A stretch of 15,893 bases of DNA, counting the filler, from Candidatus Woesearchaeota archaeon (GTDB lineage Archaea > Nanobdellota > Nanobdellia > Woesearchaeales > B72-G16), in NCBI GenBank assembly GCA_003650545.1. It is 6 parts of 6 records of this genome, joined end to end, with 100 filler letters (N's around TTAATTAATTAA, not from the genome) between each part and the next. Parts side by side here need not be neighbours in the genome. Positions count along the whole stretch, not along the records: positions 13,371 to 15,893 come from QMQO01000132.1; 5 more parts are not named here. One strand, 5' to 3'. Position 1 is the stretch's first letter. Each line of letters opens with the position of its first letter. The position numbers and the translations under genes were made by a program. The notes beneath the pieces were generated by a model that was not told where the DNA came from, made no database searches, and saw only the letters and a program-made list of their open reading frames with translations. Positions 5,342-15,893 of this stretch are shown here, in pieces.

Positions 5342-5441
5342 NNNNNNNNNNNNNNNNNNNNNNNNNNNNNNNNNNNNNNNNNNNNTTAATTAATTAANNN
5401 NNNNNNNNNNNNNNNNNNNNNNNNNNNNNNNNNNNNNNNNN
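5342..5441. other. Artificial contig-joining spacer
   Basis: N44-TTAATTAATTAA-N44. Confidence 0.97.
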
Positions 5442-8009: not shown

Positions 8010-8109
8010 NNNNNNNNNNNNNNNNNNNNNNNNNNNNNNNNNNNNNNNNNNNNTTAATTAATTAANNNNNNNNNNNNNNNNNNNNNNNNNNNNNNNNNNN
8101 NNNNNNNNN
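8010..8109. other. Artificial contig-joining spacer
   Basis: N44-TTAATTAATTAA-N44. Confidence 0.97.
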
Positions 8110-8892
8110 TGGAGGAGGACTGGTTGGAGGTGGTGAGGTAGGACCAGTGCTTGGTGCTCTACAATGGCTCCTGCACATATTTAAAGTAGTATATGGACCA
8201 CTAGAACTTTTGTAGCACTGATATGTAGTTTTGTTACAAGTATAACAATAATCATTACCAGGACAAGAAAGAGGTCCAGATGGTTCTACGCAATTATCCT
8301 TACAAACACTTAAAGAAGAATACACTCCATTAGAATCTTCATCACATGTCCATGTAGAGGTATTACAGGAATATTTAGTTATTGTGGGAGTAGTGACTCC
8401 ATTATTACAATCAGCATCAGCTTTACACCCAGTACATCCTTTATTACACCCTTCGCAACGACAAACCTTTGGATATTTGGAAAAAGGGTTATAGCTTTTT
8501 CTACAAATACAACACATGCAACAATATTTTTCACACTTTTCCTGGGTGTTATATGAACCGCCCTTTTTATAAACACACTTGCTTGTGCATGTTCCTGCTC
8601 CACAACTGCCTGTAGGTTGACAAGCCCAACCTTTTTTTTCATCATCTCCATTGCCTCCTCCATTACCCTCACAATCACACACCTCAGCATCTCCGCAAAC
8701 CTCAAAATAAGTACCAGCTACTTCGTCCACTATATTATAACAGTACTCTTCTATGTGACATTCTTCTTTTTCACCAGGGGGACAATCCGGACCGGTTACT
8801 ATGATTCCTGCTAAAGCATTACCTATCATAGAGAATCCAAAAATAAAACAAATTAAAGTAATAAGTATGATATATTTTGATTTTTGTTGCAT
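8110..8892 (-). CDS. Secreted cysteine-rich repeat protein, 3'-truncated
   Basis: Signal peptide ending ALA; 33 Cys in the 261 visible residues; three related modules ending C-x5-G-x-Y-x5-C-x3-C; Pro/Thr/Ser linker at the contig end. Confidence 0.85.
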
Positions 8893-10643: not shown

Positions 10644-10743
10644 NNNNNNNNNNNNNNNNNNNNNNNNNNNNNNNNNNNNNNNNNNNNTTAATTAATTAAN
10701 NNNNNNNNNNNNNNNNNNNNNNNNNNNNNNNNNNNNNNNNNNN
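10644..10743. other. Artificial contig-joining spacer
   Basis: N44-TTAATTAATTAA-N44. Confidence 0.97.
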
Positions 10744-11781
10744 ATTATCGAGACTTCCCGTGTCACCTTTTTGTTGGATTGTGGTGAGGAGAAGTTCTTC
10801 AGACGCTTGAAAGAGGTGGACTTTTTGGTAGTGAGTCACTGTTTTGACGAAGAAACCGAAATCTTCACCGACTCGGGATGGAAGAAATTTCCTGAGCTAT
10901 CCGCCAACGACAAGGTCGCAACATTGGACGAAGACGATAACCTATATTTCGAAAAGCCAGTCGGCTACATAGAGCAAGACTACAACGGACCGATGTACCG
11001 ACTGCACGCGGACTACCTTGATATGTGTGTTACCCCGAACCACAGAATTTTTTGTGATGTAGGGGAAGGTTTTCGTTTTTACACTCCAGTGGAGGTTTTT
11101 GGTCTCACCAAAAAGTTTTTGACTGAGGATTCCGAGACAATTGTTGATGGGGATGAGTCATGGGTCCCGTACAAGGGGAAGGTGTACTGTGTTGAGCTCC
11201 CCAAGTATACGCGGCATTTGCTCTTGGTCAGACGTGAAGGAAGAGTTCATTGGTCTGGTAACAGTCATCCCGACCATGTGGATGGGATCAGGGGCAGGAC
11301 TTTGCAGCTCCCGGTTCTTGCCTCCCGCAAAGTGATTTCGCAGTTGCGGAAGATTTGTGAGCTCAGAGATCCGCGTCCTGGTTCTCGCTTCGAGTACAAA
11401 GACGTTTCGCTCAAGTTGATCCCTTGTTTACATTCAGTCAAAGCTCCTATGTGGGGTTTGGTTCTCAACGAAGAAATTGGAATATTTACTGATATCATTG
11501 CGCCTCGCAGGGGTTGGGATGTTCTCAAGAATCTCAAGGTTTACATTGGTGACGGTTCTACACTGAACAGACCCATAATCCGTCGGGACAAGGAAACGGG
11601 TGAAATTTACGGGCACACGACGATGCTCACTCAACTGCGGAAGGCCGACTCGTACGGATGGAAGAAAGTGATCTTCACACACTTTGGGAAAGTACCTGTG
11701 GAGATGGGTGACGAAAAGCTACAAGAGGCGTTAGGCCAAGACGTTTTGATTGCACGCGACAATCTGACCTTAACCCTCTAA
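10744..11781 (+). CDS. Metallo-beta-lactamase-fold hydrolase (PhnP/RNase Z-like) containing an intein, 5'-truncated
   Basis: The frame is open from the contig edge (IIETSRVTFLLDCG). After intein removal it reads LLDCG...VVSH|SHPDHVDG (HxHxDH), CLHS, IFTD, IGDGS, GHTT, IFTHFG, IARD, matching the MBL motif order. Confidence 0.9.
   Translation: MIETSRVTFLLDCGEEKFFRRLKEVDFLVVSHCFDEETEIFTDSGWKKFPELSANDKVATLDEDDNLYFEKPVGYIEQDYNGPMYRLHADYLDMCVTPNHRIFCDVGEGFRFYTPVEVFGLTKKFLTEDSETIVDGDESWVPYKGKVYCVELPKYTRHLLLVRREGRVHWSGNSHPDHVDGIRGRTLQLPVLASRKVISQLRKICELRDPRPGSRFEYKDVSLKLIPCLHSVKAPMWGLVLNEEIGIFTDIIAPRRGWDVLKNLKVYIGDGSTLNRPIIRRDKETGEIYGHTTMLTQLRKADSYGWKKVIFTHFGKVPVEMGDEKLQEALGQDVLIARDNLTLTL
10840..11262 (+). 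mobile_element. Mini-intein (141 aa, no homing endonuclease)
   Basis: Block A CFDEETEIFTDSGWK, block B CVTPNHRIF (TxxH), block F YKGKVYCVELP, block G VRREGRVHWSGN, followed by +1 Ser. Its removal restores the HxHxDH motif exactly. Confidence 0.93.
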
Positions 11782-13270: not shown

Positions 13271-13370
13271 NNNNNNNNNNNNNNNNNNNNNNNNNNNNNN
13301 NNNNNNNNNNNNNNTTAATTAATTAANNNNNNNNNNNNNNNNNNNNNNNNNNNNNNNNNNNNNNNNNNNN
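13271..13370. other. Artificial contig-joining spacer
   Basis: N44-TTAATTAATTAA-N44. Confidence 0.97.
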
Positions 13371-14383
13371 ACATAGAATTGTTTAACGAAATCTAAAGTC
13401 TTTTTCAAAGGATTCCAGAGATCCTCTCTTTTTCTAATAACTGCGAAGTGCATTAATGTTCGTATAGCCTCACACTGCTCCCACCAGCCCTTTCGTCCTT
13501 CCAAAATCTTTCCGTCGGGGGTGGCTGGGGAGAATATTCCTCCATCCTTGGGATCATAGCCTATCTCGAGACCATACTCTAGAAGCCGATTTGCATAAGA
13601 TAAATACTGTTTAGGGAAGCCTCTCTCCACGGCGCTGGAGAGGAGGAAAGCCCATTCAAACGCATGGCCAATATCAATTCTTCCCCCGCGTTCGGCTGGA
13701 AGCTCCCTCCATTCATGGGTATATAGTTCAGGCAGCATTCCATCCCGCTTACGTATAAGCCTATTTACGACGAATTCAGCTACAGCCTCCGCATCTCTAT
13801 AAATATGTTTTAGTCCATCCAGATCGCCTAGGGCGAGGAGGGCCTCAAAGGTATGCATGATAGGATTCTGAGATTTAGTTTCCTCGATCTCCTTGAATTC
13901 CCGGCTCATCCTCAACGAGAAGCCTCCATACTTGTCCTTAAAGCGGGTGTTCATGATCCTCCATGTCTCCAAGGCTTGGTTCATTAGGTTCTCATCTCCA
14001 GTTACCTTGAATGCATGGGAAAGCCCGAAGATGACGAATGCATGACCATAACTGCTTTTATGGGCGTCAAGAATCTTTCCCTCCTTATTGCAGGACCAGA
14101 ACCATCCCCCATACTCTTTGTCCTTGAAATTCTCAATTAGAAATTTAGCTCCGGATTCAACGGCATGTAAATATTGCTCTTCGCCCGTGAGCTCATATCC
14201 CTTCGCAAAATTATATAGGAGACGTGATTGGGAAACTAATGTTCCATAATTTTTACCTAGAGGATTCCATTTCCTATCCATGTGGGGGAGAAATAATCCT
14301 TCCTTCGTGACAGCTCCTTTCACCCAATGTGGCAGAACATCCTTAAGCAAGTGATTTCTAAACCATTCAAAGTCAAATCCCAT
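13371..14383 (-). CDS. AGE-family (N-acylglucosamine 2-epimerase / cellobiose 2-epimerase / mannose isomerase) protein, 3'-truncated
   Basis: LVSQSRLLY, DKEYGGWFW, YGHAF, QNPIMHTFEA, GHAFEWAFLL, D...GGIF, WWEQCEA motifs of the (alpha/alpha)6 AGE fold. The likely start is ATG 14383 rather than TTG 14413. Confidence 0.9.
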
Positions 14384-14538
14384 TTTCCCAGATGACAAAA
14401 TCAAAGCCTCCAAAGATAATTAAAGACTTCTCTAAAGATAAGAATTTAATTGAGGCGTGCTGAAAGGAGAGGGAAGAATTTATATCCTTATATATAATAT
14501 TATATACTACAAACAAACCATTCAGAATAGTGGATCGC

Positions 14539-14910
14539 ATGTCTAAAAATGAGGAAATATTACAGGTTTTGAGGGAGATTAAAGCACTTTTAGAACCGAA
14601 ATCGACTTCTTCACCGCCACCTCCAAAGGGTCTGTGGAATGAGTTCCTAGACTTCATCTCCAAGTATAAGGTTATGGGCATGGCTGTGGCATTTATCCTT
14701 GGTTTATATTTGGGCGCTTTAGTTCAGGCGCTTGTAAACGACCTAGTTATGCCGATAATAACGCTAGCGACGCCAGGAGTAGAGTGGGAGCTTTATATGG
14801 TTGGACCATTCCGTGTAGGTCACTTTATCGGCACTCTAATAACGTTTCTCCTTGTGGCTTTCGTCGTGTTCCTAATAGTGAAGATGACTAGAAAATTGGG
14901 AATAGAATAG
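14539..14910 (+). CDS. mscL: Large-conductance mechanosensitive channel, archaeal type, with N-terminal amphipathic helix extension
   Basis: EFLDFISKYKVMGMAVAFILG...LVQALVNDLVMPII (S1+TM1) and GHFIGTLITFLLVAFVVFLIVK (TM2); an AT-rich TATA-like region lies at ~14488-14507. Confidence 0.9.
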   Translation: MSKNEEILQVLREIKALLEPKSTSSPPPPKGLWNEFLDFISKYKVMGMAVAFILGLYLGALVQALVNDLVMPIITLATPGVEWELYMVGPFRVGHFIGTLITFLLVAFVVFLIVKMTRKLGIE

Positions 14911-15115
14911 CCCTAAATCCCACTTATTCGAAATTCATCCTACTTCCACGATAATCTCTCTACTGTAGAATGGCATATGCTGAATGCTATACTTCTTGAG
15001 TAGCGTAGCCTCTTTCATCCATGAATGATCTTCATTCTCATCCTCTTGTCTCAATATCATTGATTAGCAATGGAGTCTTTTAACGGCAGATTAGCTTCGC
15101 CAGTCTTTCGCTAGG

Positions 15116-15472
15116 TTACGTGCTTAGAATCATTCTCACAGCTATGAACACTAGGAGTATTGAGAAAATACGGGAGAGGAGGACGCCTTTAAGCTTCACG
15201 GATATTTTGGTGCCTAAATATGAGCCTAGGATAACTGACGGCGTAAGCCATAAACCAATATCATATCTAACTCCCCCCATCACTATGTGGGTGGCTGATC
15301 CAGCTAGGGTTGTTATGACAATCATTAGGGCTGATGTAGCTATAGAATTATGTATAGGTATGCCTAAAAGCAAATTCATTATGGGAACCTTCACTACTCC
15401 GCCGCCGATGCCAAGCATGGAAGCCGTCATACCTATAAGTAACCCCAGTATCGCCGCTATTACTATTAGCAT
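15116..15472 (-). CDS. TauE/SafE (TSUP) family membrane protein, single-repeat half-size form
   Basis: GLLIGMTASMLGIGGGVVKVPIM..LLG.PIH.SIATS...G...GSYLG motif; 118 aa, about 4 TM helices. An in-frame TAG lies 19 codons upstream. Confidence 0.8.
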   Translation of the reverse strand: MLIVIAAILGLLIGMTASMLGIGGGVVKVPIMNLLLGIPIHNSIATSALMIVITTLAGSATHIVMGGVRYDIGLWLTPSVILGSYLGTKISVKLKGVLLSRIFSILLVFIAVRMILST

Positions 15473-15731
15473 GTCAACCCATCCGTGGAATTCATTGGAC
15501 GTAACATGTTTAATTGCTATGTTATGCTAGGAGGATGAATTAAAATCTTATGTGTTTCCATCTAAAAGCTTAAGGCATCTAATTGATTAGTGATCCAAAG
15601 CACATTTAGATTCAGCTATCATTTAAAGCTGCTTCTTACATAATTCATTGGCTGAAGTGACGGAAACTTAATTTATTAAGGAGAAGCCTATAATCAGCCT
15701 GGTAATGGAAAGTTAGAGGAGACGGATTTAC

Positions 15732-15893
15732 ATGAGTTTCTCAGAAGTTTATTTTGTTGACGCCCGCGCCAGAAATTCTAAGGAAAGCTTACTGAATAAG
15801 ATCGCTCTCCTATTTGATCATTTAGATATCGCTAGTGTGGTTAGAGGTAACAGAGTTGCAATTAAAACTCATGTGGGCGCGCAGCTTTGCACT
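15732..15893 (+). CDS. DUF362-domain (Fe-S) protein, N-terminal fragment, 3'-truncated
   Basis: MSFSEVYFVDARARNSKESLLNKIALLFDHLDIASVVRGNRVAIKTHVG matches the recalled S.VYF.D.R......L..K...LF...........VAIK.H.G start of DUF362 proteins. GAGGAG SD upstream; missed by the ORF track. Confidence 0.75.
   Translation, partial: MSFSEVYFVDARARNSKESLLNKIALLFDHLDIASVVRGNRVAIKTHVGAQLCT

Follow-up and report, generated by a model that had tools for sequence, protein, structure and literature searches.

The window, i.e. the whole stretch of DNA that was analysed (15,893 nt), consists of six unrelated contigs of approximately 2.5 kb each, which are separated by N spacers and all belong to one metagenome bin. 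An mscL gene was found on the last piece (13371-15893, contig QMQO01000132.1). It encodes a protein of 123 aa (P0001) and is the sole MscL match in its own assembly. The Pfam family MscL (PF01741) matched P0001 with 67.9 bits at a cut-off of 27.4 and covered residues 32-117 (profile positions 1-95 of 123), while the score of 55.2 bits against TIGR00220 was under the cut-off of 71 and the NCBIfam equivalog cut-offs were not reached. The features of the locus are listed in Table 1.

Table 1. Features at the mscL locus and N runs of the window
Feature	Position in the window	Strand	Residues and basis
mscL, 123 aa (P0001), archaeal N-helix type	14539-14910	+	translation, Pfam
N-terminal amphipathic helix, predicted cytoplasmic bundle helix	14545-14592	+	residues 3-18; AlphaFold, alignment, profiles
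Pro-rich tether EPKSTSSPPPPKG	14593-14631	+	residues 19-31
S1 interfacial amphipathic helix (LWNEFLDF), aromatic-rich	14632-14667	+	residues 32-43; aligned with the Pfam MscL start and MaMscL
TM1, pore-lining, plus extension	14668-14769	+	approx. residues 44-77; MaMscL alignment, model
TM2, basic patch at its end	14815-14895	+	residues 93-119; MaMscL alignment, model
C-terminal stub of 8 residues plus stop, without linker or C-terminal helix	14884-14910	+	
Purine-rich run followed by TATA-like tracts, intergenic to the divergent epimerase gene	14467-14508	+	sequence alone
N-acylglucosamine 2-epimerase-family gene, divergent from mscL, cut by the contig end	13371-14413	-	
TauE/SafE ORF, half-length, 118 aa	15116-15472	-	profile positions 128-237
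N runs	2643-2742, 5342-5441, 8010-8109, 10644-10743, 13271-13370		

Alignment with the channel of Methanosarcina acetivorans (MaMscL), AlphaFold and Foldseek revealed the S1-TM1-loop-TM2 architecture of MscL in P0001. The AlphaFold2 monomer (mean pLDDT 81.7, pTM 0.54; pLDDT 80 for residues 1-10 and 74 for residues 11-20) contains helices at residues 3-18, 32-77 and 93-119 and a linker of low confidence. Its top matches in Foldseek were 4Y7K, 4Y7J and 2OAR, and in the ESM Atlas the whole protein matched archaeal MscL clusters only (Bathyarchaeota, Promethearchaeota and Thorarchaeota). A query of the Atlas with residues 1-30 gave no usable match, which speaks neither for the absence of relatives nor for novelty. 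The N-terminal helix contains the sequence EEILQVLREIKALL (residues 5-18, 14551-14592); Leu11, Ile14 and Leu18 are invariant in an alignment of 45 sequences, and the pattern of the family is [IM]L.[EV]L[KR].I[RK].LL. The tether, measured from the helix end to the Lys before S1, comprises 9-12 residues in 200 of 207 homologues and is 60% Pro. After K115, where TM2 ends, the chain continues for just 8 residues, a length shared by 198 of the 207 family members. The preliminary description of this DNA, which had proposed a circularly permuted MscL, is thus borne out by translation and AlphaFold as regards the ORF, its N-terminal amphipathic helix and its Pro-rich linker, and by the short stub as regards the missing C-terminal helix. 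Its statement that an N-terminal placement of the bundle helix is topologically feasible also holds.

A true start downstream of the helix was considered and ruled out. No in-frame ATG occurs from Met1 to Met46, i.e. ahead of TM1, and the single TTG (codon 11) falls within the helix. Over 67 loci the mismatches at the three codon positions amounted to 0.34/0.20/0.66, and a shifted frame contained a stop in 66 of them; because of this codon-position pattern the extension is regarded as protein-coding. Finally, in a check set beforehand, the extension proved to be conserved, the N-helix layout being present in 119 of 119 other top homologues.

P0001 shares 96% identity with a protein from Ca. 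Bathyarchaeota. The N-terminal helix and Pro tether were present in none of the 28 complete MscL proteins of the assembly's class, which are short and of the DPANN type. Further, the GC content of the mscL contig is 42%, compared to a median of 34.5% for the long contigs of the assembly, and its tetranucleotide distance is 0.112 to Bathyarchaeia loci and 0.205 to its own assembly, although 12 of 151 chunks of this assembly deviated equally. Judged from identity, class distribution, GC content and tetranucleotides, the gene probably originates from Bathyarchaeia and was mis-binned. The GC content of the six contigs in the window ranges from 33% to 49%, and several of them, the mscL contig included, may be foreign to the bin. 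Neither the epimerase gene nor the TauE/SafE ORF has a counterpart in any other MscL locus compared, and a conserved neighbourhood of mscL was not detected beyond close relatives among the MscL loci L001-L239. The TauE/SafE ORF itself may be truncated or frameshifted. The tracts upstream of mscL are a possible candidate for an archaeal promoter, based on what we take to be a BRE/TATA layout.

The N-helix type of MscL is widespread in archaea. It was found in 39 of 46 complete archaeal loci of a genome scan (3 of the 49 loci were incomplete), in 20 of the best 30 loci from Thermoproteota (where an MscL match was present in 104 of 401 genomes), in 7 of the best 30 loci of the Thermoplasmata class, and in 20 of 92 full-length representatives at 50% identity. 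Named carriers are Bathyarchaeia, Nitrososphaerales (Nitrososphaerota), Nezhaarchaeota, Methylarchaceae, Thermoplasmataceae (Thermoplasmata) and Thorarchaeota (Asgard), and a protein from Lokiarchaeota has a similar helix with a longer linker. In our collection of 502 MscL sequences, 437 of which are complete, 203 complete proteins carry the N-helix, 61 a C-terminal helix, and none carries both; these counts (0/203 and 0/61) come from related sequences of one lineage and do not represent independent events. With this restriction, the expected coincidence of an N-terminal helix with a missing C-terminal one was found, and so was the complementary C-terminal loss that circular permutation requires.

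Other cytoplasmic ends were also observed. One group of MscL proteins from Thermoproteota (loci L112, L114, L115, L117, L125, L126, L130, L133, L134 and L137) has neither helix and starts with a short charged stub (P..E-K-K-G); possibly these are N-helix forms that have lost the helix. In many MscL proteins, a Zn-ribbon-like tail with the pattern CxxC...CxxC replaces the bundle helix, namely in 22 of the best 30 loci of the Thermoplasmata class (L142-L160, L163-L165) and in 22 bacterial loci. In P0125, P0131 and P0139, MscL of the N-helix type is fused behind tandem DUF1508 (YegP-like) domains; the cluster of P0139 has 10 members and a length of 360 aa.

The closest solved relative of P0001 is MaMscL (4Y7K, closed; 4Y7J, expanded), which was the best match by sequence (E 1.4e-17, residues 30-116) as well as by fold (Foldseek E 8e-4, 40% identity). 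The two proteins share the S1-TM1-loop-TM2 core, and MaMscL is likewise described as having no C-terminal domain (PMC6167328). In contrast to P0001, MaMscL contains no N-terminal helix or Pro tether, the match beginning at residue 30. The MscL proteins of bacteria (E. coli and M. tuberculosis, 2OAR; PF01741, TIGR00220) also share the channel core and, in addition, have a helix with an L..IR..L core on a cytoplasmic Pro/Ala-rich linker. However, their order is TM2-linker-helix, with the helices forming a five-helix bundle, while that of P0001 is helix-linker-S1.

The likeness to the bacterial bundle helix, which had been noted from the similarity of LREIKALL to it, was confirmed at the level of profiles. 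A PSSM was built from 49 unique tail helices, obtained from 57 of 90 complete bacterial MscL proteins after exclusion of 22 with Zn-ribbon-like tails and 11 others. The P0001 helix scored 15.4 bits, a value reached by approximately 2-5 per million background windows and by none of 10,000 shuffled sequences, and hhalign gave a probability of 87% for N-helix versus bacterial tail. For comparison, true bacterial tails reached a leave-one-out median of 29.8 bits against their own PSSM, and the median of the N-helix family was 10.2 bits. This family median was attained by 0.7% of windows matched for amphipathicity and by 2.7% under a stricter match. The profile-profile comparison peaked at 16.1 bits in the register that places Ile on Ile, and no such peak appeared with the reversed profile.

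These data are in line with a true circular permutation, in which tandem duplication or fusion and subsequent truncation moved the own C-terminal bundle helix of a bacterial-type MscL to the N-terminus. The mutual exclusion of the two helices fits such an event as well, and a single origin of the N-helix group is compatible with the tree (p-AU 0.52); a later loss of the N-helix would neatly account for the tail-less archaeal forms of the MaMscL type. The permutation would additionally demand a new Pro linker. Several observations argue against it and make it unlikely in our view. Among the 437 complete MscL proteins, there is none with both helices that could represent an intermediate of the duplication. 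The linker is on the wrong side for the proposed transfer of helix and linker as one block, since the block would carry the bacterial order linker-then-helix, while that of P0001 is helix-then-linker. Moreover, the bacterial signature around the invariant Ile, L(-4), E(-1) and D(+2), is missing in most members of the family. The archaeal N-helix is one turn longer, with I/M-L at -7/-6, has mostly Glu at -4 (76% of the helices), K/E/Q/R at -1 and Glu at +5, and Asp is absent from the top residues at +2. P0001 itself carries a bacteria-like variant with Val at -4 and Glu at -1.

A much better fit to the N-helix was found outside MscL. Among the background sequences, the N-helix profile matched best at the C-terminal end of a small membrane protein, which is encoded near mscL in locus L051. 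When 61 genomes of the Bathyarchaeia class were searched with a profile of the helix only, 28 contained matches; the 13 strongest were MscL, the next were mostly the last 20 residues of YdbS-like bPH_2 proteins, and weak matches to Lrp-like proteins and one other protein followed. We collected YdbS-like proteins in two ways to limit circularity, using the PH part of one seed or PF03703 alone. In the PH-part set, the tail was present in 116 of 120 proteins. Of the 103 unique N-helices, 81 scored higher on this tail than on the bacterial one; the hhalign probabilities were 96% and 88%, respectively, and a score as high as the N-helix median on the YdbS profile occurred in only 1 of 483,087 background windows. 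PF03703 matched in 51 of 121 genomes, and 27 of the best 30 loci were recovered, with 25 complete proteins. The motif formed the end of 19 of these 25, which are all 19 complete YdbS-like members. With this set, the median scores of the MscL N-helices were 26.1 bits on the YdbS PSSM and 10.1 bits on the bacterial-tail PSSM, and 100 of 103 helices fitted the YdbS tail better; the YdbS windows had been placed with the N-helix profile, which is mildly circular, but their scores were bimodal (23-33 versus at most 3.2 bits). In the profile-profile comparisons, the N-helix and YdbS tails scored 28.0 bits, the N-helix and bacterial tails 15.0 bits, and the YdbS and bacterial tails 12.6 bits. P0001 alone was nearly tied in the PF03703 set (17.2 bits for YdbS, 15.2 for the bacterial tail) and favoured the bacterial tail in the PH-part set (10.3 versus 15.2 bits).

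The N-helix and YdbS profiles agree at positions -7, -6, -4, -3, 0, +1, +3, +4 and +5. We define the YdbS-type helix as the motif [IM]L.EL[RK].IR.[LAI]LE when it is located at the end of a chain and attached by a flexible linker, a module which stems from the present analysis and corresponds to no curated family; P0001 conforms to this pattern with the V(-4) variant. Archaeal YdbS-like bPH_2 proteins (PF03703), found in Archaeoglobi, Methanoperedens, Methanofastidiosia, Bathyarchaeota and Nitrososphaerota, thus share with P0001 a motif of 13-17 residues which is attached by a flexible linker to the chain end of a membrane protein. They differ in that the scaffold is unrelated (two TM helices and a PH domain) and the helix is C-terminal, where it is predicted to lie behind a disordered linker. 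In the YdbS-like proteins themselves (L253, L254, L255, L258-L261, L269-L291; P0272-P0391), the tail helix is strongly conserved, with invariant E, L, I and R in alignment A4, and in the five proteins scanned it lies outside the Pfam coverage.

The phylogeny of the channel core points in the same direction. In a tree of 49 hand-picked rows, the N-helix cores grouped with tail-less archaeal MscL and apart from the bacterial ones (SH-aLRT 98). The same grouping was obtained in a second tree (148 rows after dereplication of 208), in which automatic labels called some long-linker or truncated members short, and neither tree placed an N-helix core among the bacterial tail-bearing MscL. The trees are based on approximately 91 columns and poorly resolved, and whether tail-less MscL is ancestral or derived is beyond their resolution. 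The V(-4) form, P0001 included, is confined to one clade of 62 rows (support 88/95), in a tree of 79 rows dereplicated at 86%, from which P0140, P0158 and P0178 were left out and in which the bootstrap was unsettled. All N-helix rows beyond this clade have E(-4), as YdbS does. Accordingly, the V(-4)/E(-1) variant of P0001, which resembles the bacterial form, would be a later change within the family.

Based on the YdbS fit of 100 of 103 helices, the order of helix and linker, the restriction of V(-4) to a subclade and the grouping of the core with tail-less forms, a shared archaeal module appears to be a more likely source of the helix than circular permutation. Of the permutation proposed earlier, the N-terminal helix, the loss of the C-terminal one and the above-chance likeness between them stand, while the origin from the protein's own C-terminus is not supported; to retain it, the YdbS tails would have to be later borrowers or distant cousins. 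Our main reading, to which we assign a probability of roughly 0.5, is that a tail-less archaeal MscL acquired the N-helix as a mobile module which is shared with YdbS-like tails and is predicted to form an axial bundle.

Mobility of the tail module is suggested by one case. The L051 protein (L051:4759-5121, minus strand), encoded 1.4 kb from mscL, has at its end a linker and tail of the YdbS type (67% over 30 aa); in L300:1417-2109 (plus strand), which is 57% identical to it, transmembrane helices are found at this end instead. Judged from the two sequences, the pair resembles a recent tail swap. As a third large family bearing the helix, L051 remained a single case, with homologues in 1 of 201 genomes and without the tail. 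A ydbS gene adjacent to mscL was considered as the source of a fusion and rejected, because no ydbS-like gene lies beside mscL in loci L001-L239.

Alternatively, the helix could have arisen de novo as an N-terminal extension. Few sequences yield a compact bundle of four to five helices, so that L-x-x-I-R-x-L-L would recur by convergence. A second register between the N-helix and bacterial profiles (8.6 bits at offset +3), caused by the 3/4-residue hydrophobic period, is consistent with this, and within the family the V(-4) variant appears to approach the bacterial pattern. In the PDB the helix profile found nothing significant and left bacterial MscL tails unmatched at E<=10; its top match, a designed water-soluble phospholamban peptide, had a non-significant E value of 0.38. 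On the other hand, the match to YdbS extends to the non-core residues E(-4), R(+1) and E(+5), which hardly any background window imitated (see above), and in one bacterial phylum, of which 121 genomes were searched, the helix profile had no match at E<=0.01. We therefore regard convergence as improbable. Since the motif comprises just 13-17 residues, shared ancestry and convergence are not firmly separable, and in view of the 12.6 bits between YdbS and bacterial tails, the YdbS, N-helix and bacterial tail helices may be one old family.

If the helix was captured as a module, what would it do in the channel? By analogy to other MscL, the channel would be a tension-gated pentamer. The N-helix has on average 0.02 aromatics, a net charge of -2.2 and a hydrophobic moment of 0.51; like the bacterial bundle helix, it is net acidic and poor in aromatics, and it differs in this from S1 with its approximately 3.8 aromatics. 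Five N-helices would thus be expected to pack as a soluble coiled coil and not to lie on the membrane. According to coiled-coil rules, Leu at -3 and +4 and Ile at -7 and 0 would form the core, Glu(-4) and Arg(+1), a pair present in 64 of 103 helices, would be placed for a salt bridge between helices, and Val at -4 would make the hydrophobic face broader, as Leu does in bacteria. The high moment and the encoding of both proteins in some genomes (G307, G398, G1083) could also be explained without a self-bundle, the helix being a second membrane-surface helix or the dock for a partner, e.g. in a hetero-bundle with YdbS-like proteins. The acidic, almost aromatic-free composition, the lack of genomic linkage to ydbS in the loci searched and the occurrence of YdbS tails in genomes where the helix profile matched no MscL make this improbable.

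Returning to the bundle, we considered its geometry. An extended polyproline rises by approximately 3.1 Å per residue, and a tether of 9-12 residues would measure approximately 28-37 Å. With a channel diameter of approximately 56 Å (PMC13661626), this should be long enough for the tether to connect the channel axis with the start of S1, which points outward. The C-terminal end of the bundle would probably be directed toward the membrane, and the bundle would serve as oligomer clamp and sieve in place of its bacterial counterpart while hanging from the force-conveying S1 helices. It would either restrain opening or separate upon opening. Bilayer force is passed on to TM1 by S1; without S1 the channel is less sensitive, and N-terminal tags alter S1 dynamics in MscL (PMC4917966). 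Thus, a bundle hung from S1 would be expected to affect gating as well as assembly.

It is likely that the P0001 channel functions as MscL channels with a bundle do, except that its bundle would sit at the opposite end. More tentatively, we propose that a large MscL clade of archaea (Bathyarchaeia, Nitrososphaerota, Thermoplasmata and Asgard), with its rigid polyproline tethers, has re-invented the bundle with a grafted archaeal oligomerisation helix, and that the resulting five-helix clamp tied to S1 acts as a spring setting the gating tension. For the YdbS-like proteins, the tail helix is a candidate oligomerisation tag. Related bacterial PH domains (PF08000) are reported to form C5 rings (PMC2817789). 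No solved structure with a YdbS tail oligomer was found by the PDB profile search or by Foldseek of a YdbS model, which matched PH domains alone, none at E<=0.001.

The N-helix MscL is important since the role of the cytoplasmic bundle is unsettled. Truncation of the bundle was described to increase the gating tension of the E. coli and S. aureus channels and to decrease that of M. tuberculosis, and both a sieve and an oligomer clamp were proposed as its function (PMC6167328, PMC5722894, PMC13661626). The N-helix MscL, which has a similar helix on the S1 side and no tail, would separate the presence of a bundle from its attachment to TM2, and the roles can be tested by deletions and swaps. With the link to YdbS, capture of a module takes the place of permutation in the evolutionary account, and a putative, so far undescribed oligomerisation tag of archaea comes into view. 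A search of openly available full-text literature, judged by titles and beginnings of abstracts, yielded no description of the N-helix architecture; the accessible text of two genome papers (PMC7997004, PMC7554672) mentions the presence of MscL only. The N-helix MscL is a real and widespread variant, apparently undescribed, of a well-known channel.

Two further ORFs in the window deserve mention. At 8062-8892 (minus strand), a Cys-rich and Pro/Thr-rich, secreted-looking protein is cut by the contig end. An ORF of 336 aa without Pfam match is located at 10771-11781 (plus strand). By eye it has the look of what is presumably a metallo-beta-lactamase fold (SH..PDH motif), and it contains a small insert which we take to be intein-like, beginning with a Cys near residue 24 and having a Gly-Asn end before a Ser.
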